Of a DNA stretch of 64,000 nt, positions 513-17,482 are shown piece by piece. The notes beneath the pieces were generated by a model. The model did not search any database. It was given only the letters and a program-made list of their open reading frames with translations, and was not told where the DNA came from. Source of the DNA: Deltaproteobacteria bacterium. Its GTDB lineage: Bacteria > Desulfobacterota > Syntrophobacteria > BM002. Position 1 is the stretch's first letter, and every line of letters begins with the position of its first letter. The stretch lies in the NCBI GenBank assembly GCA_019309045.1, contig JAFDGZ010000006.1, forward strand, positions 2,066-66,065. Reading direction: 5' to 3'. The translations under genes and the position numbers were made by a program.

Positions 513-638
513 TTGAAACCTCCTTTCATTCTCAGGTGATGTTTCCTTTACTTCCCTGAACTCCTGCACACGCCACCTTATTACCTCAAGGCGAGGCGAC
601 CACGAGCTCTCCTCGCACCATTTCCACACCACACTCTC

Positions 639-1838: not shown

Positions 1839-1916
1839 GTTACAGTTTCTCTCCTTCCATTTGCCCAAAGGGCCTCCAGGAGCCCAGTTCCCTTTTACAG
1901 CAGCCAGAGCATCAAT

Positions 1917-2699
1917 TTATGGTTTGTACCCCAGTTGGCCAGACAACTGCTGGGCAGCTTTCTTCAGGAGCGCCAGGCTCGTTGCACACTGATTGGCGGA
2001 GAACCGTTGAATTGGCCCCGCTATGGAGAGAGCAGCGCACAGCCGTTTACCATAATCGAAGACAGGCACTGCCAGGGCCGCAACCTCAGATACTCGTTCG
2101 CCAACACTGAAGGCATACCCTCGAGTGCGGATTGTTTGCAGCTCCACGCCCAGTACTTTGGCATCAGTAATGGTATTTGGTGTGAATCTCTCCAGGGAAT
2201 CTTGCCTGAGGACTTCCTGCCTGATTTCTTCGGGTCCAAAAGCAAGCAATACTTTGCCGCTCGCCCCAGCATGGAGCGCCAGCGACTGTCCTACAATCTC
2301 GGAGGCGTAACGTACGGGATGCTGTCCTTCCTCCCGGGCAACGCATCGCCTCTGCCAACCATCCAGCACATAGAGCGCTGAGGTCTCACCTGTGCTGCAA
2401 GCCAGGGCCCGCAAGAGAGGCCTGGCCAAAGAAATCAGAGGATTATGCTTTTCATACGCCTTTGCCAGGGAAAGAACTTTACCACCCAGACTGTATTTTC
2501 CGGTTGCAGAATCATGGGTGAGATACGACTTTGACACCAGCGTACCGCACAGCCGGATGATCCTGCTCTTGTTCAGTCCAGTGAGGGTGCTGATCTCTTT
2601 GAGCGTCAATGAAGCATGGGTTTCGAGACACTCCATGATAGTCAGCGCCTTGACCACAGCTGCAATGTGTCTCTCGGACTCTTTCATTGCCTGTTTCAC
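1917..2699 (-). CDS. IclR-family transcriptional regulator
   Basis: N-terminal winged HTH (LTLKEISTLTGLNKSRIIRLCGTLVSKSYL) plus a C-terminal IclR effector-domain pattern. GTG start at 2699, with an alternative ATG at 2687. Lies 4 nt downstream of the lyase gene stop. Confidence 0.85.
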   Translation of the reverse strand: MKQAMKESERHIAAVVKALTIMECLETHASLTLKEISTLTGLNKSRIIRLCGTLVSKSYLTHDSATGKYSLGGKVLSLAKAYEKHNPLISLARPLLRALACSTGETSALYVLDGWQRRCVAREEGQHPVRYASEIVGQSLALHAGASGKVLLAFGPEEIRQEVLRQDSLERFTPNTITDAKVLGVELQTIRTRGYAFSVGERVSEVAALAVPVFDYGKRLCAALSIAGPIQRFSANQCATSLALLKKAAQQLSGQLGYKP

Positions 2700-2702
2700 T
2701 CG

Positions 2703-3605
2703 TCAGCAGATTTTCTGCATTTTCCTGAGCACCCGGCTCATATGCCCGGCAAGGGGTCTGGCTAACATCTCTTCCAGCAGTTCGCTGAGTCGGCAGATTC
2801 TCTGCAAATCCACCCCTGTGGGAACGCCTGCAGCTTCAAACATATGCACTGCATCTTCAGTAGGCACATTACCGCCAGCCCCATCCACGAAAGGGCAGCC
2901 ACCCAGGCCGCCAACACAGACGTCGAAGAGGCGTATGCCTTCTTCATAGGCAGCCAGAGTGTTTACCAGGCCCAGTCCTCTGGTGTTGTGCAAATGCAGT
3001 GAAATGGTTATCTCAGGAAACTCACCCTGTATCCTGCGCAGCAAGCTTCGAATCTGCCTGGGGCCAGCCATTCCCGTGGTGTCGGCCAGGTTTATCTCGC
3101 TGGCTCCGGAAGCGGCCAGATACTCTGCAGTGGCCAGCACCGTGTCCTCAGAAATCTCGCCCTCATAGACGCAGCCGAAAGCGCACTGTATTCCCGCCCT
3201 CACGCTCAGGCCGGTTTCCCTTGCTTCTCTGATGAGAGCCGTCATTTCTGCCAGTGCAGTCTTCGCTGGCCGGCCAACATTTTTCCTGCTGTGGCTGTCG
3301 CTGGCAGACACTGACATGCTCAGGTGCGCCAGACCACACTTTTGCGCTCTCTCTAGACCTTTTGCATTCAGTACGAGTGCCGTCAGCACCACATCTTCAG
3401 GGACGTTAGTCAACACCCTGACCAGTTCGTCAGTGTTCGCCATTTGCGGCACGAGTCTAGGATGAACGAATGAGCCAACCTGGATTCTTTTTATCCCTGA
3501 ATCAACGAGTTGCCGGAAAATGCGGACTTTTTCGTCCAGCGAAAAAATGCGACTCTCGTTCTGGAGTCCGTCGCGTAGTGTTTCATCTTCTAGGGTGAGC
3601 AGCAT
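2703..3605 (-). CDS. HMG-CoA lyase-like (HMGL family) acyl-CoA lyase
   Basis: N-terminal LEDETLRDGLQNE motif, HLHNTRGLG metal-site motif and TIM-barrel HMGL-like pattern. ATG start at 3605. Confidence 0.85.
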   Translation of the reverse strand: MLLTLEDETLRDGLQNESRIFSLDEKVRIFRQLVDSGIKRIQVGSFVHPRLVPQMANTDELVRVLTNVPEDVVLTALVLNAKGLERAQKCGLAHLSMSVSASDSHSRKNVGRPAKTALAEMTALIREARETGLSVRAGIQCAFGCVYEGEISEDTVLATAEYLAASGASEINLADTTGMAGPRQIRSLLRRIQGEFPEITISLHLHNTRGLGLVNTLAAYEEGIRLFDVCVGGLGGCPFVDGAGGNVPTEDAVHMFEAAGVPTGVDLQRICRLSELLEEMLARPLAGHMSRVLRKMQKIC

Positions 3606-3636
3606 CTGGGGCCTTGTTGTAAGAAGGTTGCATAAA

Positions 3637-3663
3637 ATTCTATTAGATAGAATAATATTCTAT
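3637..3663. promoter_or_regulatory. Candidate operator: ATTCTAT-TAG-ATAGAAT palindrome plus a third ATTCTAT copy, 32-58 nt upstream of the lyase start codon
   Basis: Read directly: perfect 7-3-7 inverted repeat at 3637-3653 and a further direct heptamer at 3657-3663. A TATAAT hexamer on the minus strand lies at 3674-3679, just upstream in the direction of transcription. Confidence 0.35.
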
Positions 3664-3934
3664 CTTGGTTACCATTATAAGGCTCCGATGTCAAGTCGCA
3701 AAGCACTCTCTATAGGAGTCTGTTCAAGGGCCCCGGCCTGCCGCATCCTATCCACCCTGCATCGAGGCGACCCGGCCAAGCTGTCTTTCAGAAAAGCATC
3801 GTTGGGGTCAGTTGGCATTAGACCTTGTTATTGAGGCAATATTCTTAAATAATAGTAGAAAACAATATAAGTAAAACCCGAAAATGATGAACCGACAAGG
3901 TTGGCTTTCCCTTTATGAATCAGGAGGAAAACTC

Positions 3935-4387
3935 ATGCGTGCCACTGTTCTCGCTGTCCTGGTGAGTGTTCTGCTAGCAAGCCCCAGCTTTGCCGCTGAT
4001 GGGGTAGTAAGCCTCAGGAGCAGTTACGATGTCAAGACAACAGCTGATAGATTGGAGAAGATCCTCCAGGAGAAGGGCATGACTGTCTTCATTAGAATTG
4101 ATCATGCCAAGGCGGCAAGCAAGGTGGGCAAAGATCTTCGCCCTACAGAACTCATTATATTTGGCAACCCCAAGGTGGGCACCTCCCTGATGCTTTGCAG
4201 CCAAACAGCTGGCATCGATCTTCCTCTAAAAGCCCTGATCTGGCAGGATCAAATCGGTCAGGTGTGGCTGTCGTACAATGATCCCAATTATCTTGTCTGG
4301 CGCCATCATATGAAAGGCTGCCAGGAGGTGATAAACAAGATAACCTCCGCCTTGCAAAACTTCGCCACTGCCGCTGCCAGTCCTTGA
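3935..4387 (+). CDS. DUF302 domain-containing secreted protein
   Basis: ORF 3884..4387. GGAGG RBS precedes the ATG at 3935. Signal peptide MRATVLAVLVSVLLASPSFA. DUF302-like core (TVFIRIDHAKAA...ELIIFGNPKVGT...DLPLKALIWQD). Confidence 0.75.
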   Translation: MRATVLAVLVSVLLASPSFAADGVVSLRSSYDVKTTADRLEKILQEKGMTVFIRIDHAKAASKVGKDLRPTELIIFGNPKVGTSLMLCSQTAGIDLPLKALIWQDQIGQVWLSYNDPNYLVWRHHMKGCQEVINKITSALQNFATAAASP

Positions 4388-4412
4388 GTCTTCCAGACGA
4401 GTCCTGGCAATA

Positions 4413-5681
4413 TCAGCTGGCGAACCTCAAATCGCTGCTTGCGTCGTAAAAGACATTGGCAGGCTGCTCACCGGCCAGCACAAGGCGATAGCTGTCAACC
4501 ATTATGCCGGCGATGATCTGATTTGTCATAATGACGGAGGGCTCTGGCCGGTATATACACGACTCTCGCAACCGTCTGAATGAAGAGATCTGTCTTTCCG
4601 CAACAATCTCTTGCAGACCCAGAAGCTCAGCAGGGGTACCATCATTGCTGCCGGGGCTGTAGACAATGACCTGGCCTGCAGCCACGTTGCTGCCGCCGCT
4701 CACCAGCATCTTTCCCGTAAGCTGACACAGTTCGCTTATAACAATTCTGCTTTCAAAATTGTCCACACAGTCGAAGACCACATCAAACCCAGAGATGTCA
4801 CTGTCCCTGCTCAGATAGTCCACCACAGCTACCGCCTCTGTGGTGAACATAGAATTGAGTCGCCTGGCAAGGATTTCAGCTTTGTTGGAACCAACGCCGG
4901 CATGCAATAGCACCTGTCTGTTGAGGTTGGTTACTTCCACCACATCGGGATCAATAAAGGTAATGTGTCGAAAACCAGAAAATCCCAGGGCAAGGCCGAC
5001 AAAGTTCCCGAGCGCTCCCGCCCCTACCACACAGATCTTCTTGGTGGCACTGTCGATGACCACCTGCTTGCTCTTGTAAGAAACGACTTCACTGGGTACT
5101 GGCCATCCCAGCAAAACGTTCTTGGTATCTTCCAATGCCAGACCAGCAGCAATTATCCCCAGAATGCCGTCATGCACACATTCTCCCGGCAGCTGTCTGG
5201 CACAGACGATCTCTTCGAGCTCCTGCCACTCGCGCCCTTTCCTGTAGGTGAATACCTTGCAGCCCTGCTCATTGTTTTTCTGGTAGCAGAAGGCCCTGAC
5301 AAGTGGAACGTCATCCTGGTAGGCTCTGTTGAGCATCAGCTTGTTGGCAAGGCCAAACTGACTCAGATCAACTATTAGCTGGCAGTCACGAAAAATATCG
5401 TCCCACATGGGATGCGTGTAGAATCCCTCGACATGCGTCAATCTCAGCTTGGGATTCAGCTGACTTGCCGCGTCTGCGAGCCCCTCGTGCAACCATGGAG
5501 CAATCACCACCAGGTTACAGATGCCAAGAGCTGCAGCGGCCAGCAAGTAGTGAGAGGCGAGGTAGTCGGAATCGCCAACAACACCTATCTTGGCGCGCTC
5601 GAGAACACTCTGATTCCAACCCGGAATCCGCAGCTGTCTGTCCAGTCTATCTTCAAACATGGTTTGTCTTGCCAGCGGCAA
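4413..5681 (-). CDS. E1-like (ThiF/MoeB/HesA superfamily) adenylyltransferase with a degenerate N-terminal and a canonical C-terminal Rossmann domain
   Basis: C-terminal half has KICVVGAGALGNFVGLALGFSGFRHITFIDPDVVEVTNLNRQ and VFDCVDNFESR, the classic ThiF/E1 nucleotide-binding motifs. N-terminal half has the same fold pattern (RQLRIPGWNQSVLERAKIGVVGDSDYLASHYLLAAAALG) but GxGxxG is degenerate and there is no NLNRQ. TTG start at 5681, with an alternative ATG at 5660. Confidence 0.85.
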   Translation of the reverse strand: MPLARQTMFEDRLDRQLRIPGWNQSVLERAKIGVVGDSDYLASHYLLAAAALGICNLVVIAPWLHEGLADAASQLNPKLRLTHVEGFYTHPMWDDIFRDCQLIVDLSQFGLANKLMLNRAYQDDVPLVRAFCYQKNNEQGCKVFTYRKGREWQELEEIVCARQLPGECVHDGILGIIAAGLALEDTKNVLLGWPVPSEVVSYKSKQVVIDSATKKICVVGAGALGNFVGLALGFSGFRHITFIDPDVVEVTNLNRQVLLHAGVGSNKAEILARRLNSMFTTEAVAVVDYLSRDSDISGFDVVFDCVDNFESRIVISELCQLTGKMLVSGGSNVAAGQVIVYSPGSNDGTPAELLGLQEIVAERQISSFRRLRESCIYRPEPSVIMTNQIIAGIMVDSYRLVLAGEQPANVFYDASSDLRFAS

Positions 5682-5717
5682 AATAGATTTCCACTCCAGG
5701 GCCCACTCAAGACTATC

Positions 5718-6518
5718 CTACATCCTTTCAATTAGCTCTGGCGGTGGAGAGGTCACTGGTTTAATTTTCTCCGCTATTTCGCCAGCCAGCGCCCGCACCT
5801 CAGCAGGCGATAGATCCAGGGCGGAGTCCACAACTGTCATCTCGGCCTCCTTGCCTGCAATAGTAACCTCACCAGAAAGTATTCCTCTTTTCTTGTAATA
5901 GATCTCCTGGGAATGCCAGCCTTTGTCCCCAATAACAATACAGTAACAAAAGCTGCCGTAAATGGTCTCCAGGACCATAGCCTCTTCAACAGGCTTGTCC
6001 GTAACTAAACAGACGCTCCCCTGGCGCAAGTCCTCAACACTATAGTGATCTTTGCGCAACAGAACTAGATCCCGAATTACCAACTCTTTCTTGGCCACTG
6101 GTCGCCTTACTAGAGGACTGACATAATCCAGCACTGTGAGATGGTTCTCTCTGTCAATTTCTGAGAACATTTCATACTGCAGTTCCCCATGTGAGTGAAT
6201 CCAGCCGTTCACTATCAAATGCGATGGCAAGCTCTCCAAAAATGCTGCTATACTTTCAGGCTTCAGCTCTGTGTGATCCTGAAAATTAGCCTGATCTCGG
6301 GGCAGTCCCACATCAGTGATCACCTCCGGATTGTCTTTGCTCGCTAGAGTAAAGCCATACCATTCAAAACTGTCTTTGAAGATTTCCTTGATCAGTTCAC
6401 ACGTCCTGTAAGCCTTATTTTTTGCATAGGCGGTGATCTGCACCTTTTCAGGCAGCGAATGCAATGGCAACTCCAGAACGCTCTTCCGTTTCAATTGCGC
6501 TAGACTCTTCAGGCTCAT
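5718..6518 (-). CDS. JAB/MPN (JAMM) metallopeptidase-domain protein with a ~130-aa C-terminal extension
   Basis: JAMM signature read directly: upstream Glu ([10 protein letters not shown]), then [18 protein letters not shown] (HxH...SxxD). The ATG overlaps the stop of the upstream AAA+ gene (ATGA at 6515-6518). Confidence 0.7.
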
Positions 6519-7618
6519 GAAAGCCTCGCTTTCACGTAGCTGCCATTTACCACGAATTCTCCCTGGTGTTTACCCGGCAGCTCGTACATCTTGTCCAGCA
6601 GTACCCTGTGCAGGATGCTCGTCAAGCCTCGCGCCCCAATGCCCTCTTTGGTGGCATGCCGCGCCATTTCGGTCAAGGCCTCATCCGTAACCTTGAGCTC
6701 TATATCCCAGGCCCTCAGATCATTGCTGTAGGCTCGCAAGGGACTATCTTCACTCTTGGTAAGAATCTCTTTCAAATTCTGGGTGGTCAGAGAATTGTAG
6801 ACAACCCTCACCGGAAAGCGGGCCATGAGTTGTCTTTCCATGCCAAAAGAGACCAGGTCTTCGGTGAGGAGGTATTCTTTCCAGTCACCTTTGAGCCCGT
6901 GCTCCTCCATGCGGTTCTTGACAATATCATCGATCTTGTCATATACCCCGCCAGCAATGAACAGCACGTGTCTGGTGGACAACATCAACCTCTCTCTGCC
7001 AAGTTCGATGGTATTTTCTACGCCTTCCACCATTTTGAGGAGCCCTTTCTGTACTCCTTTGCCGGAGACATCCTTGTAAGCCGCCTGTTCAGTGGCTATC
7101 TTGTCAAGCTCATCCAGATAGACAATTCCCATCTGGGCCACTTGTGAATTGCCTCCTCCTGCTATGAGAAGATCTACCAGGATATCGCTGGTGTTTTGCC
7201 CCACATATCCTACCTCACTGAATTTGGTCATGTCCTCCACCACAAAAGGCACACCAACCAGTGCCGAGGCGGTCTCCCCGGTGTAGGTCTTGCCGCAACC
7301 AGTGGGACCTATCATCAATATGTTCGCCTTCGGCGTCCTGGTTTGCCTCAGTGCTCTGTCAATATCTTGACCATTCTCTACCATGGCCTCCTTCAGTGCG
7401 TGCCCCAGCCTGCGATAATGGTACGCAATTGCCGTAGCAATAACCCTCTTGCCCTTCTCCTGGCCAATAATGAACCTGTCCATTTCTGCTTTGAGCTCTG
7501 CCGGGGTCTTGTCAAACTCCACAATATGTTCCACCGTTTCATTGGCCTGCAGCTCCCGAAGCTTATCTATCTTTTCTTGAATCCTTCTGCGGCTTTCACG
7601 TGATATACTCTCATACAT
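6515..7618 (-). CDS. ClpX-like AAA+ ATPase (unfoldase) lacking the zinc-binding domain and the IGF loop
   Basis: Present: [23 protein letters not shown], Walker A GPTGCGKT, pore-1 GYVG, Walker [11 protein letters not shown], and GARGL. The track ORF starts at GTG 7657 with no RBS. ATG at 7618 (MYESISR) has a GAGG about 10 nt upstream and is preferred. Confidence 0.85.
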
Positions 7619-7777
7619 ATCAGGCAACCTCGTTTCTACTGGTTGGCCACCAGCCACTGCTGATCATAATTGCCCAAAATACTAAGGTCTTCTCCTGCTG
7701 TTGCAACTACATGGGCCCCGCTGCCGCCATCAAGACCACACCCCAGTCGGTATGACCGCCTTGATGGCTAGCGTCCT

Positions 7778-8218
7778 TCAAGCTCGCTTCGACCCGTTGG
7801 CATACTCTTTCGACAAAAGCACGCAGAAATGCAGCGATGACAGCTGGTGCTCATCGAGTCTGGCGTTCTGTTGATAAAGCCGGCAGGCAAGAAGGAGTTC
7901 TTCCGGTGAATTTGCAAATTGGACATAAGGATTATCCACTATGTCCAATATTGCTTCAGTAAGGCGATATGTTTTTTCTGACACAAGAGAAAACAATGGA
8001 AGATCCATTGACTCTTTTTCCACCGTGCTCAATTTCTCTACAGATCCGTCGTGCTCCATAGACCGTTCGAGGTCTCGGATAAATGTTTCATCGAGTCCGT
8101 ACTTTTCCACAACTGCGCTTACCCTGGAAAATGGCGTTCTGCGAAACACCTGCTTCTGCCTTTTGCGGGCCCTTGTGCTGATAATTCCTTGCAAAAGGTG
8201 TTTCTCAGAGGTACTCAT
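7778..8218 (-). CDS. Hypothetical 146-aa protein (predicted mostly helical, basic N-terminus), member of the Ubl-like operon
   Basis: ORF with ATG at 8218 preceded by GAGGTGGA. Overlaps the upstream gene by 14 nt. I recognised no family motif. Confidence 0.55.
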   Translation of the reverse strand: MSTSEKHLLQGIISTRARKRQKQVFRRTPFSRVSAVVEKYGLDETFIRDLERSMEHDGSVEKLSTVEKESMDLPLFSLVSEKTYRLTEAILDIVDNPYVQFANSPEELLLACRLYQQNARLDEHQLSSLHFCVLLSKEYANGSKRA

Positions 8219-9359
8219 TTTTTACTTCCACCTCACCCGAGATAATTTTCGGATGATCGGCCGGAATGCGGTAGTCGTCAAAATTGACTATCCTTACATA
8301 GGTGGTAACCCTGTCGAGGCTGTGATAACCGTTTCGCCTTCTGGGGTTGTAGCCATGGTAGAGGGCAAGCAGCCCCAATTCCAGGGAGCGTATCACGTTT
8401 TGGGCAGAAAATTCTGTTGCCGGTGTAAACTGTTTCATACAAATTTCCTGCTTGGCAGCATGTCGGAAAAGAAAAGGGTGTTTGTACCTGTCGAGCACAT
8501 ACGGTCTAGGGGTACCGCTGGTGGATACTGCCACCCGGCAATCAGGAAACAGGTAGAGACGGCCATAATAGTCCTTGAGGGCGTATTCACCCGTATGCAC
8601 GTATACGTGATAATCTCCAGCACGTCCTTCTCTGAACAAGCCAAAGTCATCTAGACTGCAAGAACCCTTATCTGCTATGTACAACAGCAGCGCGACATAC
8701 TTCTTGTCCAATTTCGCCAGCTTTTCCCTCTCTGCCACCTCCTTCTGCAGACGATATTTCTCGGCGACCCTGAACTGCACTTTTGACGCCGCCTCCAGCC
8801 AGTCCTGTAATTCTTTTGCCTCCATAAGGCCGTCTGCAGGGTAGTGATCCTGCGAATACGTATCAGCAAAACTCTCGAGCAGTGTCTGAAGTGAATTGTC
8901 ATCGCGATACCTTTCCGCCTCGCGGTAATAGGAAGCTGGCACGCTCAGCCTTTCCGCCAGTAGAGCCAGGATTTCCTCGCTGTTCAAGGTGCGTCGGTGC
9001 AGACCTTTGCGCCTCCCTACAAAGTGAGGCATTATCTGAAAAATAATAGTCTGCAATTTGTCATCAGGCCCAAAGGCGTCTCTAACCCAGGAGTTTACCT
9101 TGCTGTCGAGCAATCCCGTCCGCAGTCTATGGTAGGAATCCGGGTAGAGCCGGCCATACTGACGCACCAGTGACTCGAGTGTCACCGACCTCACAAAGAG
9201 CTGCCCTGCAACCTGGAGAACGACAGGAAGAGATTCTTCAGAGCCACTTTCTGCCAATACAGTGGCCTCTTTTTGCACCTCAGGATCGAAGAGCAATGGC
9301 ACATAGAGCACCCCTTGCTGTACGACAAAGGGACCATTATTCGCAAGTAGTTTAGCCAT
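8205..9359 (-). CDS. Hypothetical protein with a candidate UBC/E2-like C-terminal domain
   Basis: ORF 8205..9362 (TTG), with ATG at 9359 lying 3 nt after the stop of the upstream small gene. The C-terminal region PRPYVLDRYKHPFLFRHAAKQEICMKQFTPATEFSAQNVIRSLELGLLALYHGYNP aligns by eye to the E2 core ([26 protein letters not shown]...[15 protein letters not shown]). Confidence 0.5.
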   Translation of the reverse strand: MAKLLANNGPFVVQQGVLYVPLLFDPEVQKEATVLAESGSEESLPVVLQVAGQLFVRSVTLESLVRQYGRLYPDSYHRLRTGLLDSKVNSWVRDAFGPDDKLQTIIFQIMPHFVGRRKGLHRRTLNSEEILALLAERLSVPASYYREAERYRDDNSLQTLLESFADTYSQDHYPADGLMEAKELQDWLEAASKVQFRVAEKYRLQKEVAEREKLAKLDKKYVALLLYIADKGSCSLDDFGLFREGRAGDYHVYVHTGEYALKDYYGRLYLFPDCRVAVSTSGTPRPYVLDRYKHPFLFRHAAKQEICMKQFTPATEFSAQNVIRSLELGLLALYHGYNPRRRNGYHSLDRVTTYVRIVNFDDYRIPADHPKIISGEVEVKNEYL

Positions 9360-9362
9360 CAA

Positions 9363-9737
9363 CTACCAATCTCCGCCTTCCTGAGGCTTGATCGCCCGGA
9401 TGGGCACATAAAGATAGTTCTCACCAATTTCAGTCTGCTGTCTCTCCACATAATTAAGCGCCCTATCGTCGATCTCCTTGCCTCTGCTGAGTAGTTTGCC
9501 TCCCTTGAGCTGCCGACGAATCTCTTCTACTATTTGCCGCTCTTCAATGCTCAGGTCTTCCCTGGCCAATGTCTGCTCGCACAGTTGCCTCAGGCTCTTG
9601 CCCTCATATGTACCAGGCTCGTAAATATCAACCAGCCCTTCCCTTGCCTGCCCAGCCATTATCTCTACTACCAGTGGCAGCAGCCTCTCTTCTTTTGCCC
9701 GCCTTGCCACATCCTGGTCCAGCTCTACATCAGCCAT
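9363..9737 (-). CDS. Small protein with a ubiquitin-like C-terminal half ending in GG-DW (candidate modifier precursor)
   Basis: ORF 9363..9752. ATG at 9737 sits 6 nt after GGAGGAG. The C-terminus is KLLSRGKEIDDRALNYVERQQTEIGENYLYVPIRAIKPQEGGDW. It resembles ubiquitin 43-76 and has a diglycine two residues before the stop. Confidence 0.55.
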   Translation of the reverse strand: MADVELDQDVARRAKEERLLPLVVEIMAGQAREGLVDIYEPGTYEGKSLRQLCEQTLAREDLSIEERQIVEEIRRQLKGGKLLSRGKEIDDRALNYVERQQTEIGENYLYVPIRAIKPQEGGDW

Positions 9738-9981
9738 GCTACTCTCCTCCATGCATTTCTTTCGCCAATTTTCATTATTTTAACTCATGGGAAACACAAA
9801 AGGTAAGCAGCGAACATGTCAGTGTCGATCAAGGCGTCACCCGAGGACGGGAGATGATATGTATCTCCAGGGCATTGGACCACTGATGGTTTGCTATCTC
9901 CTTTTCTAGTCATCATCTCCCAGAGGCAGCATTGCCATTCATAGAAAAGAACACCCGTCAAATGGCTCATGCCAAATGGAG

Positions 9982-10683
9982 TCAATCTTTGCACACAGTT
10001 TCACGGGTAAAATCACGAGCCGCGGCGACTCCTTCCTTTTCGGCAAATAGCTGAATCCACTCCTGCACTCGCGCTTCACCGTAAGCATCTTTCCAGGCAG
10101 CCACTATAAGGTCCACTGGAACGTCTGCAAAGGTACCGTGGTGGGCAACGTATTCCATGAAGCGGTTGTTCTGCGCGTCGTAAGGGTGGAAGAGGGAGTC
10201 ATGCCGCCCATCAAACTCCAGAGGCGGCACTCCGTGCCGCTCGCAAAGCTCTCGATTGAAAGTAGGCGTGGCCTTCACCCATTTGCCTTCTAGATAGAAC
10301 TCGACGAAGCCGTGATACACAAAGAGGTTGCTGCCCAGAAAATCAAGAAGCTGCTTTGTGGCCAGATGATTGCGTACCGTGGCAAATCCGAGCCGCGTCG
10401 GGATGCCACAGGCGCGGGCCAGAGCGCACAACAATGACGCCTTGGGAACGCAGAAGCCCCTGCCCTTTGCCAGTACTTTGCTTGCCTGGTAGTGGACCGG
10501 CAGGTGAAAGGCGCAGTATGGATCGTAGCGGATACCATCTCGCACAGCCAGATATAGTCTCACTGCCTGTTCAACCTGATCGTAGCAGCCAGCGACTGTT
10601 TGTTTCGCATACCTTTCCACAGGTAGCTGATCGCTGTCTATGATTGCCGTAGGCTGTAGATAGATTGCCCTGCTCTCTTTCAT
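9982..10683 (-). CDS. Transglutaminase-like cysteine peptidase-fold protein
   Basis: Transglutaminase-core pattern: GRGFCVPKASLLCALARACGIPTR (Cys), then VYHGFVEFYLEGKWVKATP (His), with downstream Asp. ATG at 10683. Confidence 0.8.
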   Translation of the reverse strand: MKESRAIYLQPTAIIDSDQLPVERYAKQTVAGCYDQVEQAVRLYLAVRDGIRYDPYCAFHLPVHYQASKVLAKGRGFCVPKASLLCALARACGIPTRLGFATVRNHLATKQLLDFLGSNLFVYHGFVEFYLEGKWVKATPTFNRELCERHGVPPLEFDGRHDSLFHPYDAQNNRFMEYVAHHGTFADVPVDLIVAAWKDAYGEARVQEWIQLFAEKEGVAAARDFTRETVCKD

Positions 10684-10734
10684 TGTCCTTCACATCCGTC
10701 TGTACCAGGCGCAGCCTGCACCGTAGCGCTCGGA

Positions 10735-11283
10735 CTACGGCAGATTTTTCTGCCACTCTTTGGCAAAGATCTTTGCTACTTTGTTGGTCTGGGAAGGATC
10801 TATCTTCAGTGCTTTGGCAACTTCCGCATATAATCTTTTACGATCGCGGTTTTCGGCATCCACCAGAGTCTGCAAATCTCTCTTTTCTTTTAGCCCCAAG
10901 CCCTTGGTATGGGCCACTGACACATAGCCATCCTGGCCTTCTTTGAGGTTGCCATTCTGGTAATAGGGCTTCGTGAGACTATAGCGGGCTTTCATCTCCT
11001 TCTTCAACGCCCGTATGGTCGGGTTGGAAACTGTGGTCACTTCGCCAGCCCACGCCTCGAGAGCGGTCAGATGAAATAGCTCATATTGCAGTAGCGATTC
11101 TTGGTCCTTCTTGGGGGACTGCTCTTTTTCTTCTGTATTCTTGCCTCGAATGTCACTGACAATCTCCCCGGCAACTGATTCCACCTCTTTTTCAGGGAAA
11201 TAGATGTTGATAGTTACGCAGGCAAATACTGTGAGTATACCGAAAACAACCAAAACTTTCGCCGTCTTCCGAGAACCTTTCAT
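10735..11283 (-). CDS. YdbL-like (DUF1318) periplasmic protein
   Basis: N-terminal TM/signal segment. C-terminal GQDGYVSV...LVDAENRDRKRLYAEVAKAL matches the DUF1318/YdbL pattern. ATG at 11283 lies 5 nt after GGAGAGG; the track start is GTG 11289. Confidence 0.7.
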   Translation of the reverse strand: MKGSRKTAKVLVVFGILTVFACVTINIYFPEKEVESVAGEIVSDIRGKNTEEKEQSPKKDQESLLQYELFHLTALEAWAGEVTTVSNPTIRALKKEMKARYSLTKPYYQNGNLKEGQDGYVSVAHTKGLGLKEKRDLQTLVDAENRDRKRLYAEVAKALKIDPSQTNKVAKIFAKEWQKNLP

Positions 11284-11405
11284 TTCCACCTCTCCCCTTG
11301 TCCCCCGGTTAACACCACATTACTCTAATCTGCATCCATCGGGCTGGCAAGTCGGGGCATCAGCAGAACAACCCCCACTTCCCAGAACAGACTGGCGCAT
11401 TGGGG

Positions 11406-14400
11406 CTATTTTATCACTGGCCCAGTGCTGTCAGCGGTGATCCGTTTCAGGCGTCCCACCATATCTTTGAAACTTACTCGATTATCGACGTTTTGGTTGA
11501 TGACATCAACTCCCGTAAGTCCAGCTCTTCGTACCAGATATTCCTTGCCCCCTTCTTTGACAATACCGTTCACCTTAAAGATATCATTCTGCAAAGAAGC
11601 TCGCACCCCCATTTTTCTATAGGAAAAATGCTTGAAAAAGGGAGTGAGAAGTCTGGCTGCCCCCATGAAGGGACTCTGAGCCCCGCCTAGTTGGGCAATG
11701 TGGTCTATGGCCTTCAGGCTGATTTTCTGCCTGACCCCTTTCTTTTTTACAGTCTGTAGCAACAGGTCAAAACTCTGCGGTTGCCCGTCCACAATCTCCA
11801 GATCGTTGACATAGCCGCTGAGAATTCCCTGAACTCTGCCGAAACCGGTTCCTCTAGTGGCAAGGTCGAGATTCAGGTCCTTTACTTTCACATTGCACCT
11901 GAGAAGGGGGGCGGGAGAATAGATGGCGCTCGCACCTAAATCCGAGATGAGCAGTTCACCGTCGAAAACGTGCACAGTCACGTGCCCCGAAGTGGTAATG
12001 GTGTCTTTTTCGACTACAATCGGTGCCAGTCGGCCTGTCACATCCCCATTGATGGGCCGAGGCCACATATCGTGCAGCAATGGCTGCAGCTCTTTGATGT
12101 CGATAGCCATACTGGTCTGTAAATGGGGCCGTCCGCTGTAGGGATTGCGCACCTCGATCCGGCCTAGACTCACTTTTCCCCCTGGCAGGAAAAGCTCAAC
12201 TCCATTCTTCACTCTCAGGGTATTACCCACGCTTTCGAGGTTCAAATGGAGCGGCTGTTCCGAGAAAAGCGGCAGTTTCAGAATCTCCACGGCTAGAAAC
12301 CCATTTACTGCCTTGCCTGCTGTACCCTTTGAACCACTTTGATAGCTGATGGGAAAATCGACTTTTATTCCCTCTATTCCTATTTTCTTCTCCGGCACCA
12401 CCAGACTCCCATCTCTCCAGCGAAGGTGACCTGTTCCCTGCTTTTGAGACCCATTGCTAGATAAGGAAAACTCCCCGGATACTGTGCCGCTCACCTGCAA
12501 TGCTGGAAGCAAGGCATTTTCACTCTTGAATGGCTCCACCAAGAAGTGCTGAAAGATGGGCCTCAGCGGAGCTCTGCCGAGAGAAAGCCGCGCATGCACG
12601 GGGCGGCCCTGGCGCTGCAGCTGCATAGAGCCAGTGCCTTCAACAGTCAACAGATTTTTTAGATCCACAACCATTCTCCCCATCTTTAACGACTCTGCCG
12701 CCAGGTCGTAGGTGGCCTCGGTCCGTGCAGAGAAAGCGTTCTCACCAAGGTTCAGATAGAATCTGTCATAAAGCATCTCACCCGCAGGGACCTGCAGGGA
12801 AATGGTGGCCTCCACAGCAGGTTCTTTGAATTTCTTGCGCCCCTTCGCTTCCGCAGTCAAGGAGAGCCCCTCTGCCACAATGCTCTGTTCTTTGTTTTGC
12901 AAGGCCACCTTCTCCAGGACAATTCTCCCCCAGAAAGTCGTCTCTCGCCCAGGCCTCACCGTGGATTCTATCCGAATAGAATCTACTCCCTCCACCTGCC
13001 AATCGCTGGGAAGCAGTCCCAGGGCCGCAAGAGCTTCGAAAAGATGGGTACGCTCACCCCGGAGGCTCAAGTGCGCTTGTTGATCTCGAACATCCAGGGC
13101 AAGCTGAAGGTTCTTCAGGATTGAAGAGTGGAAGCGGAGATGAGGGATTGACACAGATTTCTCGGAGATATCCACGGTACCCTCTGCTGCTCTGAGATGT
13201 ACATCGCTGAACAGCTTCTTCCCTGGACCTAGAGGTAGTCGCACTACAGGCAACTCAGCCGTCACCTCTTCTATGAGAAAGCGAGGATACCTCCCACTGA
13301 GAGAAAATCCCGCCTCAAAAGACTGCAGCTCTATTCCGCCGACAGCTGCCAGAGCTTTATCTATGGTCATCGACAAGAATAGTTGTGGAAAGGGCAGCTT
13401 TCCTCTGGCTGAAATGCGGCCATTCAGAGTGGCAGCCACTCTGGCCCTCTCAGTGGAGTAAGAAAACACGTTGTTCTCCAGGCGCCCCCGCAAATCAGTA
13501 TCCCAGAGCCAACCGGCCGCCGTTTTCGCAGCACGGATCAAGCCGTCTCCTTTGATAATTCCTGTCAAAGCCACTGCACGCAGCTTCTTCTTCGTATCAC
13601 CCGGGAGCAGCCAGGCGATACCAGCGGGAATCACGCTTGCCTCTCTGATTTCCACATATACCTTGGGTTGAGCGCCAAAGTTTCCCTTCAGTGCCCCTTG
13701 CAATTGGGCCAGTCCTTCCACTGTCAACTGAAATACTGGTACGGAGAAACTCTCCTCTCTGAGGTCGAGGCTACCATTCGCACTCACATGCGTCATGATT
13801 GGTGTACGGCTGCTAGCCGCGAGCCTGCGCATGGAAGCCCTGCGAGCGTCCACGATAATGGATCCAAAGTCGAGCCGCTTCGTGTTCAGGTGATACTTGA
13901 ACCGCGCTCTCACCTCCATGGCTTCCACCGATGCCTCTGGACTGTGCAATACTCCCCCCCGGAGAGTGACAAGACACTCTATATTCGGTTTCAGTAGTGA
14001 GACCACTCCTTCAGTAAGCAGATGGATATCTGAGCTGCTGAAGCTGATCTCTTCGGAAGGCAAGCTGAAGTTGGCTGTCGAAGATACTTCCAGACGACCA
14101 TCACTGTGCAAAGAAGCGTGCACCTGTTCGAACTGGATTACTGCCTGGGGAAGCTGCGCAGTAATTCTGCTGTTGACTACCTCCGCCCCTTCAAGCCTTA
14201 TCTCTTTGAAAAGGAAAAAAGCCACCAGCTTCTTTATTATTCTCGAGGTCAGCGACCATTGCTGTTTTTCTCCCTGGCGGCTCTGCTTGGTCAGCACAGG
14301 CTGTCCAGATACGTTGATGCTCAGACCATGCATTAAGAGTTTCTCGAAAACAAGAGACCTCTCACCGAGCCCCCCCACCAGCCGCATGTCCGCCTCGAAC

Positions 14401-14660
14401 TCTTCCAAACTAAGGAGAAATTTGCCCCCAGTCGGAGATGATCTCACCGTTATATGGCCAGCCTTCAAATGCAAGGGGGAAATAGAATACTCCAATGTGC
14501 CAATGTTGACCACAGCTTTGCTTCGCTGAGCAAACGAATTTTCCAGTAGATTTTTGACGCGCCAGGGATGAGTGTAGTAATAATAGGTGAGGCCGGCAAT
14601 CGCTCCCATAAGAAGCAATGAGAGCACGATGACGACAAGAAGTAGTCTCTTGATTTTCAT
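11406..14660 (-). CDS. YdbH/AsmA-like large envelope protein (1084 aa, N-terminal TM anchor)
   Basis: N-terminal anchor MKIKRLLLVVIVLSLLLMGAIAGL, then a long beta-rich repetitive body. It sits directly upstream of a YdbL-like gene, as in the E. coli ydbH-ynbE-ydbL locus. Confidence 0.65.
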   Translation of the reverse strand: MKIKRLLLVVIVLSLLLMGAIAGLTYYYYTHPWRVKNLLENSFAQRSKAVVNIGTLEYSISPLHLKAGHITVRSSPTGGKFLLSLEEFEADMRLVGGLGERSLVFEKLLMHGLSINVSGQPVLTKQSRQGEKQQWSLTSRIIKKLVAFFLFKEIRLEGAEVVNSRITAQLPQAVIQFEQVHASLHSDGRLEVSSTANFSLPSEEISFSSSDIHLLTEGVVSLLKPNIECLVTLRGGVLHSPEASVEAMEVRARFKYHLNTKRLDFGSIIVDARRASMRRLAASSRTPIMTHVSANGSLDLREESFSVPVFQLTVEGLAQLQGALKGNFGAQPKVYVEIREASVIPAGIAWLLPGDTKKKLRAVALTGIIKGDGLIRAAKTAAGWLWDTDLRGRLENNVFSYSTERARVAATLNGRISARGKLPFPQLFLSMTIDKALAAVGGIELQSFEAGFSLSGRYPRFLIEEVTAELPVVRLPLGPGKKLFSDVHLRAAEGTVDISEKSVSIPHLRFHSSILKNLQLALDVRDQQAHLSLRGERTHLFEALAALGLLPSDWQVEGVDSIRIESTVRPGRETTFWGRIVLEKVALQNKEQSIVAEGLSLTAEAKGRKKFKEPAVEATISLQVPAGEMLYDRFYLNLGENAFSARTEATYDLAAESLKMGRMVVDLKNLLTVEGTGSMQLQRQGRPVHARLSLGRAPLRPIFQHFLVEPFKSENALLPALQVSGTVSGEFSLSSNGSQKQGTGHLRWRDGSLVVPEKKIGIEGIKVDFPISYQSGSKGTAGKAVNGFLAVEILKLPLFSEQPLHLNLESVGNTLRVKNGVELFLPGGKVSLGRIEVRNPYSGRPHLQTSMAIDIKELQPLLHDMWPRPINGDVTGRLAPIVVEKDTITTSGHVTVHVFDGELLISDLGASAIYSPAPLLRCNVKVKDLNLDLATRGTGFGRVQGILSGYVNDLEIVDGQPQSFDLLLQTVKKKGVRQKISLKAIDHIAQLGGAQSPFMGAARLLTPFFKHFSYRKMGVRASLQNDIFKVNGIVKEGGKEYLVRRAGLTGVDVINQNVDNRVSFKDMVGRLKRITADSTGPVIK

Positions 14661-15074
14661 TTGATTACAGCCCTGGCGCCGATTTTCGGCTGTCAGCCAG
14701 CCAAAATGACGGCACTCATTATAGCGGTGCTAGCCTGCAGTTGCTATGAATAATTGAGGGCCTTGACAGCAGCCAACGATAAAGCTGCGGGCAGTGAAGA
14801 GAACATCTGGTGGATCAGGACAAGGCAAGGCTATTGGGGTAACAGCGGGCTCTTGGCAACAAACTCTCTCTTGCCTGCCCTTTGGCAGTAAGTGTCAGCA
14901 GTACTTTCAGCAAAGAACTGCGACCATTACACGAGACCACAGGCGTGGACCAGGCTATTCCAGACTGGTCACCCGAACTGGTTGCCTCCGGGAGAAGAAA
15001 AGACAAATGGTTGGTCGCAGAAAAAAACTATCTTTTCCTGCTGACCTGACCTCTGCCACTGATGCCAATCCTTG

Positions 15075-16433
15075 TTAGCGTGAAAACATATAGGTAAACT
15101 GGCGTCCCGCATTGCTTTCCATCTCCTGCCATTGTGCCAGCCCCTCCCAGGCCACATCATAGGCATTGCCGGCACTCCAGAGCAGCCAGCCTCGTGATTT
15201 CGACTCCTTCAATGCCAAGAGCTGTTGAACCACGTACTCTCCGTTGAACTTCTTGGTCCCGAAGGGAAAGGCCTGAATCCACGGACGCACAGTCACCCTG
15301 CTGCCTTTGAGCAGCGCTGCAAACCGGGCACACGTCTTGGAAACCAATAAGAAGGGGGCATCGCCTGGATTGGCCAGGCCGTGAAATCGGTTGTAGAAAT
15401 GCGATGGATAAATCATCGGAGATATCACGTCGCAATGTGCTGCCAGGGCTGCTATGTTCTGGCCGGTCATGGCCACATCTTCCACACGATCCCAGGCTGT
15501 TATGCCAAAGACATCAATGGATAGCAGCACTTTGTACGGTTGCAGCTCTCGATAGGCCCTGGCAAGAAACCTGGTTATAATTTCATCCCTGCTGATTTTT
15601 CCTGGCTCATCATCACGGGCATCACCCTCGCCCAGGGCAACTGTGGGAAAGCGAATATAGTCGAACTGTATCTCGTCAACACCCATGGCAGCCACTTCTT
15701 TTGCAATCTCTATGCAGTAGTCCTGCACCTCCACTCTGGCTGGATCGACCCAGGCGATTTTGCCGTTGTCCATTACTGGTGCCCCATTCACTGATGAACG
15801 CAGGGCGAATTCAGGCCGCTTTCTGGCCAGAAGTGGATCGTAGAAGAGCACCAGCCTGACACCGATGTGCAATCCTTTCTGATGTAGATAGTGAAATAGC
15901 TTTGCTGGATCACTGACTGCTGCACAGTTGCTGGCCCCAATGGACCTGGCCAGAGGGACCTTTGAAGTGTACGACAGTTTTCCCGACATATCCTTGCCGT
16001 CCAGGATGACCGTATTGCCGCCATTGGCAAGCAGAGTATCGGCCAGCCTGGTGATCTTCTGGCAGGCCATGGAATAGCGGTTCACATAAATGCCTTTTGC
16101 GAGGAAATCTCTCTGCTTGGCAATGGTCTTGGCTTTCAGCGGCGTTGATCTCACCAAAGGTACAATGAGCTGTTGTTTCGGGTGGATAAGAGACCCTTTG
16201 AGGTGGTTGAGTTTCTTGATCTGCTCAGTGAGATCGCTCGTAGTAAGTGACTCTGTCAAAGGCAGATACTGGCGAGCTATTCTGTCGAGCGTCTCACCAG
16301 TGGCTACCACATGAACAAATCTGCCATGAGAATGATCTTCCTTGCCGCCAGCCTCCGCAGCCAAGCACAACAGCGTCATTATTCCCATGGCCAGGGCACA
16401 AACCTTTTTCCTGTACAATAGTTTCCAGGCCAA
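15075..16433 (-). CDS. Secreted LysM-domain protein with a putative glycoside hydrolase (DUF4015-like TIM barrel) domain
   Basis: Signal peptide. LysM-like HVVATGETLDRIARQYL. KGIYVNRYS...GGNTVILDGKDMSGKLSY and DEIQFDYIRFP resemble the DUF4015 putative glycosyl hydrolase family. TTG start at 16433 with GGAGGT 8 nt upstream. Confidence 0.65.
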   Translation of the reverse strand: MAWKLLYRKKVCALAMGIMTLLCLAAEAGGKEDHSHGRFVHVVATGETLDRIARQYLPLTESLTTSDLTEQIKKLNHLKGSLIHPKQQLIVPLVRSTPLKAKTIAKQRDFLAKGIYVNRYSMACQKITRLADTLLANGGNTVILDGKDMSGKLSYTSKVPLARSIGASNCAAVSDPAKLFHYLHQKGLHIGVRLVLFYDPLLARKRPEFALRSSVNGAPVMDNGKIAWVDPARVEVQDYCIEIAKEVAAMGVDEIQFDYIRFPTVALGEGDARDDEPGKISRDEIITRFLARAYRELQPYKVLLSIDVFGITAWDRVEDVAMTGQNIAALAAHCDVISPMIYPSHFYNRFHGLANPGDAPFLLVSKTCARFAALLKGSRVTVRPWIQAFPFGTKKFNGEYVVQQLLALKESKSRGWLLWSAGNAYDVAWEGLAQWQEMESNAGRQFTYMFSR

Positions 16434-16726
16434 TCCACCATACCTCCAGCTCGCCTGACTCGTTTTTCTTTGCTGTGGTGGAGATGGATAGCAAGAAGCG
16501 TGCTCAAAATTATACTATTATGAAACGATTTAAAAATAGGTATGATTAAAGGTAGGTTATTGTATACATTTTTTTCTAGATACAGACTTTTGAGGAAATT
16601 ATAAACCTTATATTATCTTTTAGAACACTCTATGCGGGTTTCTGCGGCAAATAGTACATAAGAGGGCACGGCCATGAAATCACGGAGCCCCACAGCCGAC
16701 ACTGATGAATTACCTTTTGTCAGCCT

Positions 16727-17482
16727 CTAATGCGCCAGGAAACCACCGTCAACAGCTAGAGTATGGCCAGTCACGTAAGAAGCAGCGTCGGAACAAAGCC
16801 AGACCACAGCCTCAGCCACTTCCTCCGGCTCTGCCATTCGGCCCATAGGCTGCTGAGCCAAAATCAGCTGCTCAACTTTTTGCTCCCCCTGCGTGAAAGC
16901 CGCAGCCATGGGTGTGCCCACAATACTTGGACAGACAGCATTGATACGGATGTTGTCTCTGGCATATTCAAGAGCTGCCGCTTTTGTCAGACCCACGACG
17001 CCGTGTTTGCTGGCCACATAGGGCGACCAGCCCCAGAGCCCTACCAGACCTGCCACTGAAGAGGTGTTGACAATGACGCCTCCACCCTGAGCCCTCATTG
17101 CCGGAATTTCGTATTTCATGCACAGCCAGACTCCCTTGAGATTGGTTTGCATGACCTCATCCCAGAGCTCTTCAGCACAGTCAGCGGTCAGGCCTTGAAC
17201 TCCAGCAATGCCGGCATTGTTGTGGGCACAATCAATCCTGCCGTACTTTTCCACTACCGTAGTCACCGCTGCCTTTACCTGTATCCCCTTTGTCACATCA
17301 GTGTGCACGAACAAAGCATCTCCACCCATGGAGCGGACCATTTCCACAGTTTCTTCCCCACCGGCAACATTTAAATCAGCAATGACCACGCCGGCGCCTT
17401 CTCTTGCCAGAGCAATGGCCACGGCTCTGCCAATGCCAGACGCCCCACCAGTAACAAGTGCTGTTTTTCCAGCAAGTCTCAT
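16727..17482 (-). CDS. Short-chain dehydrogenase/reductase (SDR) family oxidoreductase
   Basis: TGGASGIGRA cofactor motif, NNAGI, and catalytic YVASKHGVVGLTK. Confidence 0.9.
   Translation of the reverse strand: MRLAGKTALVTGGASGIGRAVAIALAREGAGVVIADLNVAGGEETVEMVRSMGGDALFVHTDVTKGIQVKAAVTTVVEKYGRIDCAHNNAGIAGVQGLTADCAEELWDEVMQTNLKGVWLCMKYEIPAMRAQGGGVIVNTSSVAGLVGLWGWSPYVASKHGVVGLTKAAALEYARDNIRINAVCPSIVGTPMAAAFTQGEQKVEQLILAQQPMGRMAEPEEVAEAVVWLCSDAASYVTGHTLAVDGGFLAH

Follow-up and report, generated by a model that had tools for sequence, protein, structure and literature searches.

Among the systems described so far, the closest to the one considered here are the Bil (bacterial ISG15-like) operons, especially Type II BilABCD (formerly CEHH/6C), in which the ubiquitin-like protein (Ubl) is made with one or more residues past its reactive glycine and is pre-processed by a JAB/JAMM peptidase, the E2 is diverged and carries a catalytic cysteine, the E1 has an inactive and an active adenylation domain with its cysteine on a helical insert, and the core genes follow the order Ubl, E2, deubiquitinase (DUB) and E1 (10.1101/2023.09.26.559546; PMC11601596). 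In this study, we describe a locus that appears to resemble these operons in these respects, with a candidate E2 whose catalytic cysteine is putative. It lies in a stretch of 64,000 nucleotides (nt) from Deltaproteobacteria bacterium (assembly GCA_019309045.1, contig JAFDGZ010000006.1, positions 2,066 to 66,065), hereafter the window, and consists of six genes on the same strand which encode a small Ubl precursor (the first gene), a 385-amino acid (aa) E2-like protein, a 146-aa protein, a ClpX-family AAA+ ATPase, a JAMM-motif protein and an E1-like enzyme. We estimate a probability of roughly 0.6 that the first gene encodes an unannotated ubiquitin-like modifier precursor and opens a six-gene ubiquitination-like cassette. 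The evidence is wholly computational, and the cassette most likely specifies a ubiquitination pathway of the Bil kind to which an unfoldase is coupled. Comparison among relatives gives a strong signal for a processed modifier ending in GG within a fixed six-gene unit.

The cassette differs from the Bil operons in that it adds a ClpX-family AAA+ gene coupled to the JAMM gene, as well as the 146-aa protein; its E2-like protein reaches 385 aa with a large N-terminal region, and its modifier is distinguished by an additional helix, by a floppy extension at the N-terminus and by its PQEGG end. It is also found outside defense islands, in Desulfobacterota, Methylomirabilota and Binatia rather than in Rhizobiaceae and similar hosts. 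No Bil structure appeared among the Protein Data Bank (PDB) sequence matches of the Ubl, the E2-like protein or the JAMM protein, no direct comparison with Bil sequences having been made, and BilD was absent from the 56 matches of the E1 at 1e-5 or better. The ubiquitin operon of Caldiarchaeum subterraneum is likewise a compact prokaryotic cassette (ubiquitin, E1, E2, a small RING E3 and an Rpn11-like JAMM), and its pro-ubiquitin carries a 9-residue propeptide after the GG which is removed by a JAMM enzyme that also deconjugates (PMC5654768). However, the archaeal ubiquitin, E1 and E2 are recognizably eukaryote-like in sequence, whereas the Ubl, E2-like, JAMM and 146-aa proteins described here, that is, all parts other than the E1 and the AAA+ protein, are orphans as judged by their sequences. 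Moreover, our cassette has no RING E3, and the archaeal operon has no AAA+ protein.

The Ubl precursor gene (9363..9752, minus strand) is an open reading frame (ORF) of 129 aa, whose translation from 9752 to 9363 ends in KLLSRGKEIDDRALNYVERQQTEIGENYLYVPIRAIKPQEGGDW followed by the stop, that is, in ...GENYLYVPIRAIKPQEGGDW before the stop codon TAG. The end of the protein thus reads ...IRAIKPQEGG-DW-stop in the 129-aa numbering used throughout, and a predicted beta-grasp-like domain covers approximately residues 26-127. A first-pass annotation of this DNA had claimed that the small protein ends in GG followed by the two residues DW, and direct translation of the minus-strand ORF agrees. The terminal codons, all on the minus strand, are those of G126 (9377-9375), G127 (9374-9372), D128 (9371-9369) and W129 (9368-9366) and the stop (9365-9363); the mature C-terminus is predicted to be G126-G127 (9377-9372), with D128-W129 (9371-9366) as a propeptide. 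The true start is probably M6, at the ATG at 9737, giving a protein of 124 aa, because the database copy (P0001) has that length, homologues begin there and GGAGGAG stands just upstream. The gene for the 385-aa protein follows with an ATG at 9359, three bases past the Ubl stop. Within window positions 9357-9377, the codons GGC GGA GAT TGG (G-G-D-W) hold GGAG, 11 nt 5' of this ATG, and in the window genome the short DW tail also provides the spacing for the ribosome-binding site of the next gene; other loci do not generally share this, because their intergenic distances differ widely.

No feature of the family is conserved as well as the GG, and the tail varies without constraint. When 5.8 billion proteins were searched through a word index, 203 relatives were recovered, all unnamed or hypothetical and from Desulfobacterota-type metagenome-assembled genomes (MAGs), and a later profile search extended the family to 575 clusters at 90% identity, all labeled hypothetical. 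An exhaustive hidden Markov model (HMM) search of 1.84 billion representatives at 50% identity returned only 69 clusters; the family is small and compact. Among the matches listed, [PA]QEGG was present in all 120 close homologues, and in these the GG was followed by 0-19 residues with no conserved sequence, the first of which could be almost any amino acid; two members of the family terminate exactly at the GG. In an alignment of 39 members reaching down to 22% identity, G126 was the sole invariant column, and E125 and G127 were conserved in at least 90%. Conservation of the GG in homologues, on which the first-pass annotation had made its reading depend, therefore exceeds that of any other position. 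Across 81 genomic loci, all four glycine codons occur at both Gly positions, which indicates that selection on the GG acts at the protein level, and both codons are in use at the Q and at the E of QEGG. The distance from the Ubl to the next gene ranges from ~0 to more than 170 nt across loci. A role of the conserved GG as an embedded ribosome-binding (Shine-Dalgarno) site of the next gene is ruled out by this codon diversity and by the variable intergenic distance.

Natural fusions provide independent support for cleavage after the GG. In three Desulfobacca-type loci (L028, at 10001-10830, L050 and L064) and in protein P0121, the ORF continues in frame past PQEGG into a 151-aa GNAT acetyltransferase (Pfam Acetyltransf_1, 6.7e-18), and the full cassette is kept in the three loci. 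A GG that is followed by 0, 2 or 19 residues or by a whole enzyme would fit the removal of everything after it. The arrangement recalls ubiquitin-ribosomal protein fusions or BubAB, and these fusions, together with the variable tails, are ready substrates for processing assays. The Bub (6E/DUF6527) systems likewise comprise a bacterial Ubl, E1 and E2, and their Ubl can be fused to a downstream domain from which JAB releases it (PMC11601596), in parallel with the Ubl-GG-GNAT proteins. In contrast to the cassette described here, which has conserved cysteines and no DUF6527 protein, Bub has oxyester (Ser) intermediates and a DUF6527 serine protease and is without an AAA+ protein.

The variable tails and the fusions also bear on a different explanation, in which the GG is not a conjugation site at all, the small protein is an adaptor or substrate of the ClpX-like ATPase, PQEGG is a degron-like recognition tag and the tail stays uncleaved. 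Members of the ClpX family do recognize short terminal peptide tags, and the modifier has no statistically significant homology to any Ubl. However, neither 0-19 random residues nor a 151-aa GNAT domain would be tolerated behind a terminal degron. This explanation also does not account for why the protein occurs together with an E1 whose adenylation motifs are intact and which has a conserved cysteine, and one distant cassette (L084) apparently has no ATPase. We consider it very improbable, and we judge it likely instead that a precursor would be trimmed at the GG and activated by the E1.

An AlphaFold2 model of the modifier, built on a 35-sequence alignment, gave a predicted local distance difference test (pLDDT) score of 84.3 and a predicted template modeling score of 0.73. 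It places a low-confidence helix at residues 6-23, strands at 27-33 and 39-44, helices at 54-62 and 69-82, strands at 86-89 and 103-106, a long strand at 112-121 and a flexible tail, PQEGGDW, at 122-129. Residues 26-127 are thus predicted to show a beta-beta-alpha-alpha-beta-beta-beta order, which is that of the beta-grasp elements with the helix split in two; the ~25 N-terminal residues form a charged, poorly conserved, low-confidence extension. The first-pass annotation had described the N-terminal ~70 residues as helical, which is contradicted by the strands of the first hairpin at 27-33 and 39-44, and had placed a ubiquitin-like segment in the C-terminal half of the protein; the Ubl reading gains support from the model, but the domain covers approximately residues 26-127 and not that half alone. 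The predicted fold is therefore not all-helical, and in Foldseek searches Ubl-type domains made up at least 21 of the top 50 PDB matches (best E = 0.07, template modeling score ~0.3-0.4). A SUMO1 fusion occupied ranks 1, 3 and 4, and ten Atg8/GABARAP/LC3 entries, five USP7 UBL entries, doublecortin and an orphan Ubl domain were also among the top matches. Matches in a viral structure library were similarly weak, with a viral ubiquitin-like protein at rank 2. Scans of Pfam, NCBIfam and PADLOC gave no match for the modifier. Pup and UBact tags are intrinsically disordered proteins of about 60-70 aa that end in GGQ or GGE and depend on a PafA/Dop ligase. The modifier described here does not belong with them, as it is confidently folded, has a tail after its terminal GG and goes with an E1, not with a PafA/Dop-type ligase.

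The E1-like enzyme (422 aa; 4413..5681, minus strand) confirms that an E1 is encoded in the operon, as had been noted earlier, and in nearly all loci with sufficient sequence it is found beside the Ubl, either upstream or downstream of it. It consists of an N-terminal degenerate and a C-terminal active ThiF/E1 adenylation domain and matches Pfam ThiF in two stretches (1.9e-36). The active domain, at about residues 204-405, matches Uba1 at 1.4e-14 and also Uba4, TcdA, MoeB and NAE, the matches to Uba1, Uba4 and MoeB ranging from 1e-14 to 1e-10, and its GAGALGN, NLNRQ and D..DN..R motifs are conserved. In the N-terminal half, the DRQLRI.GW.Q opening is retained but GxGxxG is replaced by GVVGD, and this half is presumably a degenerate, inactive adenylation domain. 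A cysteine, C375, follows a short conserved helical insert (TPAELLGL...) and is kept in at least 98% of 59 E1 sequences and in three distant cassettes.

These features are relevant to whether the modifier is a sulfur carrier of the ThiS/MoaD/CysO/QbsE type, which would be trimmed by the JAMM protein, adenylated by the ThiF-like enzyme and turned into a thiocarboxylate at its C-terminus, from which sulfur would pass to a small molecule or tRNA, with no protein conjugation. The active domain of the E1 scores best against ThiF and MoeB in NCBIfam (6e-27 and 5e-26), and C375 stands, by an alignment made by eye, at what we take to be the position of MoeB Cys187. The QbsE/QbsD and CysO/Mec+ systems also have a small GG protein with one or more extra C-terminal residues (QbsE ends in GG-CF) that are trimmed by a JAMM enzyme before adenylation of the ThiF/MoeB type. 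However, their operons carry biosynthetic and sulfur-transfer enzymes and neither an E2 nor an unfoldase, their E1s are single-domain homodimers, and their carriers are recognizable ThiS/MoaD members, which the modifier described here is not (hhalign probability of 0.2% against a tiny alignment of MoaD/SAMP1/Urm1/ThiS). Neither the six proteins nor their conserved neighbors include a rhodanese, a cysteine desulfurase, a sulfide-using synthase or another biosynthetic enzyme; the conserved partners are instead the E2-like protein and the AAA+ unfoldase. Moreover, the E1 is a tandem pseudo-dimer of an inactive and an active domain, like the E1s of Bil and of eukaryotes, and is without the CxxC zinc motifs found in MoeB and ThiF. 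The QbsE analogy drawn in the first-pass annotation thus gives way to a genetic context that points to protein conjugation, and we regard a sulfur carrier as quite unlikely.

The candidate for the conjugating enzyme is the 385-aa protein (8205..9362, minus strand; probable start at the ATG at 9359), which combines a helical N-terminal region with a C-terminal candidate E2 (UBC-like) domain. All of its 618 relatives are hypothetical proteins. The C-terminal third is strongly conserved (...YLFPDCRVAVST...YKHPFL...QEIC...helix...GY..RRRNGYHSLD), with the HPF of YKHPF at residues 295-297 and the cysteine of QEIC at C308. Its AlphaFold2 model has a pLDDT of 82.7, and UBC-type E2 enzymes made up 10 of its top 17 Foldseek matches in the PDB (E = 0.3-1.2, ~100 columns), namely UBE2D2, UbcH5B, UBE2E2, UBE2A/Rad6, Ubc2 and UBE2G2. 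When its profile was compared with four E2s by hhalign, the sole local alignment paired YKHPFL-x-QEIC-helix with YHPNV-x-GSICLDIL-helix. An HMM search of PDB sequences with its profile (A2) found no E2 and nothing relevant. C308 is retained in three distant cassettes, in which C275 and H295 are not always retained. Together, these observations suggest that the 385-aa protein is a candidate E2 with C308 as its putative catalytic residue. The 146-aa protein (7778..8218, minus strand) has an NPY..FA.SPEE motif and no family match, and it is the least conserved member of the cassette, with about 37% identity; neither it nor the 385-aa protein had a meaningful match in Pfam, NCBIfam or PADLOC. As a separate observation, three proteins from separate clusters (P0163, P0174 and P0176) have the first ~41 Ubl residues joined to the C-terminal part of the 385-aa protein, beginning at ...QE[IL]C, with the junction at a common (H)EAG microhomology. 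These junctions could be real deletion alleles or assembly chimeras.

The AAA+ ATPase (380 aa; 6515..7657, minus strand) belongs to the ClpX family, matching PDB ClpX structures at 5.5e-55 and NCBIfam ClpX at 1.5e-78, yet below the equivalog cutoff of the latter (264 vs. 359 bits). Walker A (GPTGCGKT), Walker B (DELD) and the GYVG pore loop are conserved in at least 98% of 56 sequences. There is no N-terminal C4 zinc-binding domain, since 52 of the 56 members have no cysteine within their first 60 residues. The ClpP-docking (IGF) loop is also missing: compared with Escherichia coli ClpX, the loop connecting FIAGG to DLV.FG is shortened by ~20 residues, and the tripeptide [LIVM]G[FLM] is absent from it in 54 of 56. 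We infer from these features that the protein is an unfoldase or remodeler that does not feed ClpP.

A JAMM peptidase had been reported in the same operon by the first-pass annotation, and a 266-aa JAMM-motif protein is indeed encoded at 5718..6518 (minus strand), identified mainly by its invariant motif (HxHx8Sx2D), with no Pfam match above threshold. The motif residues E52, H108 and H110 (in H108-S-H110), S119 and D122 do not vary in either of two sets, one of 18 and one of 15 JAMM sequences, distant cassettes included. Prok-JAB gave a weak match in 9 of 18 homologues (best E = 0.0028), and the sole enzyme matched by the JAMM profile in the PDB was the Caldiarchaeum Rpn11-like JAMM (E = 0.2), aligned on the motif. 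The stop codon of the AAA+ gene and the start codon of the JAMM gene overlap by 4 nt (ATGA; window 6515-6518) in 53 of 54 loci. Since this overlap is constant while the other junctions vary, we infer that the two proteins are translationally coupled, made and used together. The overlap suggests the same pairing of an unfoldase with a JAMM protein as in the archaeal SAMP/UbaA/HvJAMM1 system with proteasome-Cdc48 and in the eukaryotic 19S Rpt-Rpn11, where a GG modifier, an E1 and a JAMM deconjugase are linked to an AAA+ unfoldase (PMC4895103, PMC4443979). In contrast to those systems, the unfoldase here is of the ClpX/HslU clade and not PAN, Rpt or Cdc48, is encoded inside the tagging operon and has no ClpP-docking loop, and no peptidase partner is evident.

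Several observations weigh against the assignment of these proteins to a ubiquitination-like pathway. All Foldseek matches of the modifier and of the E2-like protein have E > 0.01, and no PDB match of the modifier reached E <= 0.001. Approximately ten Nudix proteins were among the top PDB matches of the modifier; the Nudix fold contains a beta-grasp motif according to SCOP. In HMM searches of PDB sequences, no chain was matched by the modifier profiles A1 or A4. The hhalign probability of the modifier was 1.2% against ubiquitin/NEDD8/SUMO and 0.2% against MoaD/SAMP1/Urm1/ThiS, and that of the E2 alignment of the 385-aa protein was 0.3%, each of these being a weak test against a tiny, hand-made reference alignment. 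An alignment to ubiquitin residues 43-59, proposed by eye in the first-pass annotation, thus finds no statistical support; the same segment (GKLLSRGKEI..DDRALNYVE) was nevertheless the single one that hhalign chose against ubiquitin, and it coincides with a predicted strand-turn-strand-short-helix, which makes the alignment plausible in structural terms. In the 385-aa protein, the Asn of the HPN motif is replaced by Phe, and its assignment as an E2 is suggested by weak fold matches together with a motif. The JAMM spacing (HxHx8Sx2D) is one residue longer than the canonical one, the canonical x7 being present in the homologue of one distant cassette (L084), and the window protein matched Prok-JAB only at E = 0.16 and 12.3 bits (cutoff 25), with no Pfam model above threshold. 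No E3 was identified for the cassette, and the distant cassette L084 (AT-rich organism, Logan SRR34334174) shows no AAA+ protein on its 5.8-kb contig. The AAA+ protein may be an accessory or clade-specific addition, or may lie off that contig.

If the six proteins do form a Bil-like pathway, it could proceed as follows. The JAMM-motif protein would cut off the variable tail, here Asp-Trp, and expose ...PQEGG; there are precedents for such trimming by JAMM enzymes in the action of BilC on BilA (10.1101/2023.09.26.559546) and of the Caldiarchaeum Rpn11 on pro-ubiquitin (PMC5654768). The tandem-domain E1 would then adenylate the terminal Gly127 and take the modifier onto Cys375 as a thioester, from which the C-terminal E2-like domain of the 385-aa protein would receive it at Cys308 and hand it on to lysines of target proteins. 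Finally, the ClpX-family AAA+ protein, unable to dock ClpP, would engage the tagged proteins, possibly via the floppy N-terminal extension of the modifier, and the JAMM protein, paired with it, would remove and recycle the tag, so that it would probably also be a deconjugase. Mpa engages Pup through a flexible N-terminal part. Because their genes are translationally coupled, the AAA+ and JAMM proteins are probably partners, and the step would resemble that of Rpt/Rpn11 in the proteasome lid or of Cdc48 with its deubiquitinases. Our confidence declines along this scheme from the trimming and activation steps, judged likely above: conjugation to proteins through the 385-aa protein is somewhat favored, and the action of the AAA+ and JAMM proteins on conjugates is a tentative proposal about which we are slightly more doubtful than convinced.

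We found no paper in the searchable literature that links a ClpX-like ATPase with a Ubl/E1/JAMM operon; that literature did not cover Burroughs et al. (2015), where a prior description is possible, and Iyer et al. (2006) make no mention of a ClpX-like ATPase in such an operon. The cassette would add a sequence-orphan family of GG modifiers (575 clusters), a candidate E2 without detectable sequence relatives and a hard-wired link between tagging and an AAA+/JAMM pair. If the proposed mechanism holds, this compact six-gene system would bear on how ubiquitin-type tagging became coupled to ATP-dependent unfolding and recycling of the tag, a key step in how the ubiquitin-proteasome system arose. 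The fuller version of the proposal, considered below, would make it an independently assembled bacterial counterpart of the logic of the proteasome 19S (Rpt/Rpn11) or of Cdc48 with its DUBs.

The cassette was surveyed in one genome per species across 185,579 species, which yielded 127 loci, of which 80 were fetched. Nearly all come from MAGs of Syntrophobacteria, Desulfobacterales, Desulfobaccales, Methylomirabilota and Binatia. The hosts are abundant, mostly uncultured anaerobic lineages, with at least one that is salt-adapted, and the chromosomal contexts are ordinary. Of 45 well-covered loci, which come from Desulfobacterota, Methylomirabilota and Binatia, 38 had the full set of six genes, in two gene orders: the E1 comes first in 22 of the complete loci and last, as in the window, in the other 16. 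Mean identity to the window proteins was 66% for the AAA+ protein, 62% for the Ubl, 54% for the E1, 51% for the JAMM protein, 40% for the E2-like protein and 37% for the 146-aa protein. The neighbors of the cassette, in the window and in other loci, are metabolic and housekeeping genes.

To our knowledge, CBASS Cap2/Cap3, Bil and Bub have so far been tied to phage defense, and none is known to include an unfoldase. It might then be supposed that the cassette is a Bil-type anti-phage system, with the same conjugation chemistry placing the tag on phage proteins at infection and with the AAA+ protein as an added effector. The core gene set and order (Ubl, E2-like protein, JAB and an E1 with inactive and active adenylation domains) mirror BilABCD (10.1101/2023.09.26.559546), the E1 domain matches the PADLOC E1-E2 (Cap2-type) models at 1e-16, and the distribution is patchy at the scale of phyla. 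However, these PADLOC matches cover the generic ThiF domain alone, and the other five proteins gave nothing specific to defense except weak matches of the AAA+ protein. Apart from the metabolic and housekeeping character of the neighbors, synteny is conserved in related genomes. There is mostly one locus per genome, and identity between the proteins stays at a uniform 50-70% from order to order, a pattern resembling vertical descent; a scan of 2.9 million viral contigs gave no relatives, and no CapH/CapP or WYL regulators were seen. We consider a role in defense unlikely, if less so than a sulfur carrier. The genomic setting suggests a housekeeping or stress pathway that is encoded on the chromosome and inherited vertically, not a mobile defense island. 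A fuller version of this proposal, in which a vertically inherited, non-defense tagging pathway has a dedicated unfoldase-deubiquitinase pair, with a ClpP-independent ClpX-type hexamer that would unfold tagged proteins and a JAMM protein that would recycle the tag, is possible but, in our view, less likely than not.

Distant relatives of the modifier, with 22-35% identity, are located in rearranged versions of the same gene set. One cassette, in an organism with 37% guanine-plus-cytosine content (L087), has the order JAMM, E1, E2-like and then a 146-like protein. A second (L089, at 10001-17383) encodes the Ubl, two E2-like paralogues (407 and 401 aa), a 146-like protein, the AAA+ protein, the JAMM protein and the E1; it lies on a 236-kb contig of JGI metagenome 3300010232 with a strongly acidic proteome like that of salt-in halophiles. 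The third (L084, at 566-5656) encodes the Ubl, a 472-aa E2-like protein, a 98-aa acidic protein, a 466-aa JAMM protein (HxHx7Sx2D) and the E1. The neighbors of the L089 cassette include a regulator with HVO_A0114/TrmB-type helix-turn-helix matches. A ClpX-clade ATPase in an archaeon would be unusual, should the host of L089 be archaeal.

In the window, a gene for a protein of the transglutaminase-like cysteine-protease fold (9982-10683, minus strand; Transglut_core 2.2e-19) stands immediately upstream of the Ubl gene, and a DUF1318 gene (10735-11289, minus strand) also lies upstream of it. Both were ruled out as parts of the cassette, as neither had a match in 83 related loci. A scan of 4200-10100 for promoters and terminators gave background levels. 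In one MAG chromosome (L023; CP070843.1: 88134-108451), another copy of the Ubl, with 68% identity to the one in the window, is followed by a short E2-like fragment with no other cassette genes near it, and a full cassette (L016) is found elsewhere on the same chromosome. An 89-aa all-helical, coiled-coil-like protein has no counterpart in the window by tblastn. It is present at L001:8156-8425 and in 43 other loci, just upstream of the E1 in E1-first loci and between the E2-like and 146-aa genes in the Methylomirabilota and Binatia loci, and it may be an optional seventh component of the cassette.

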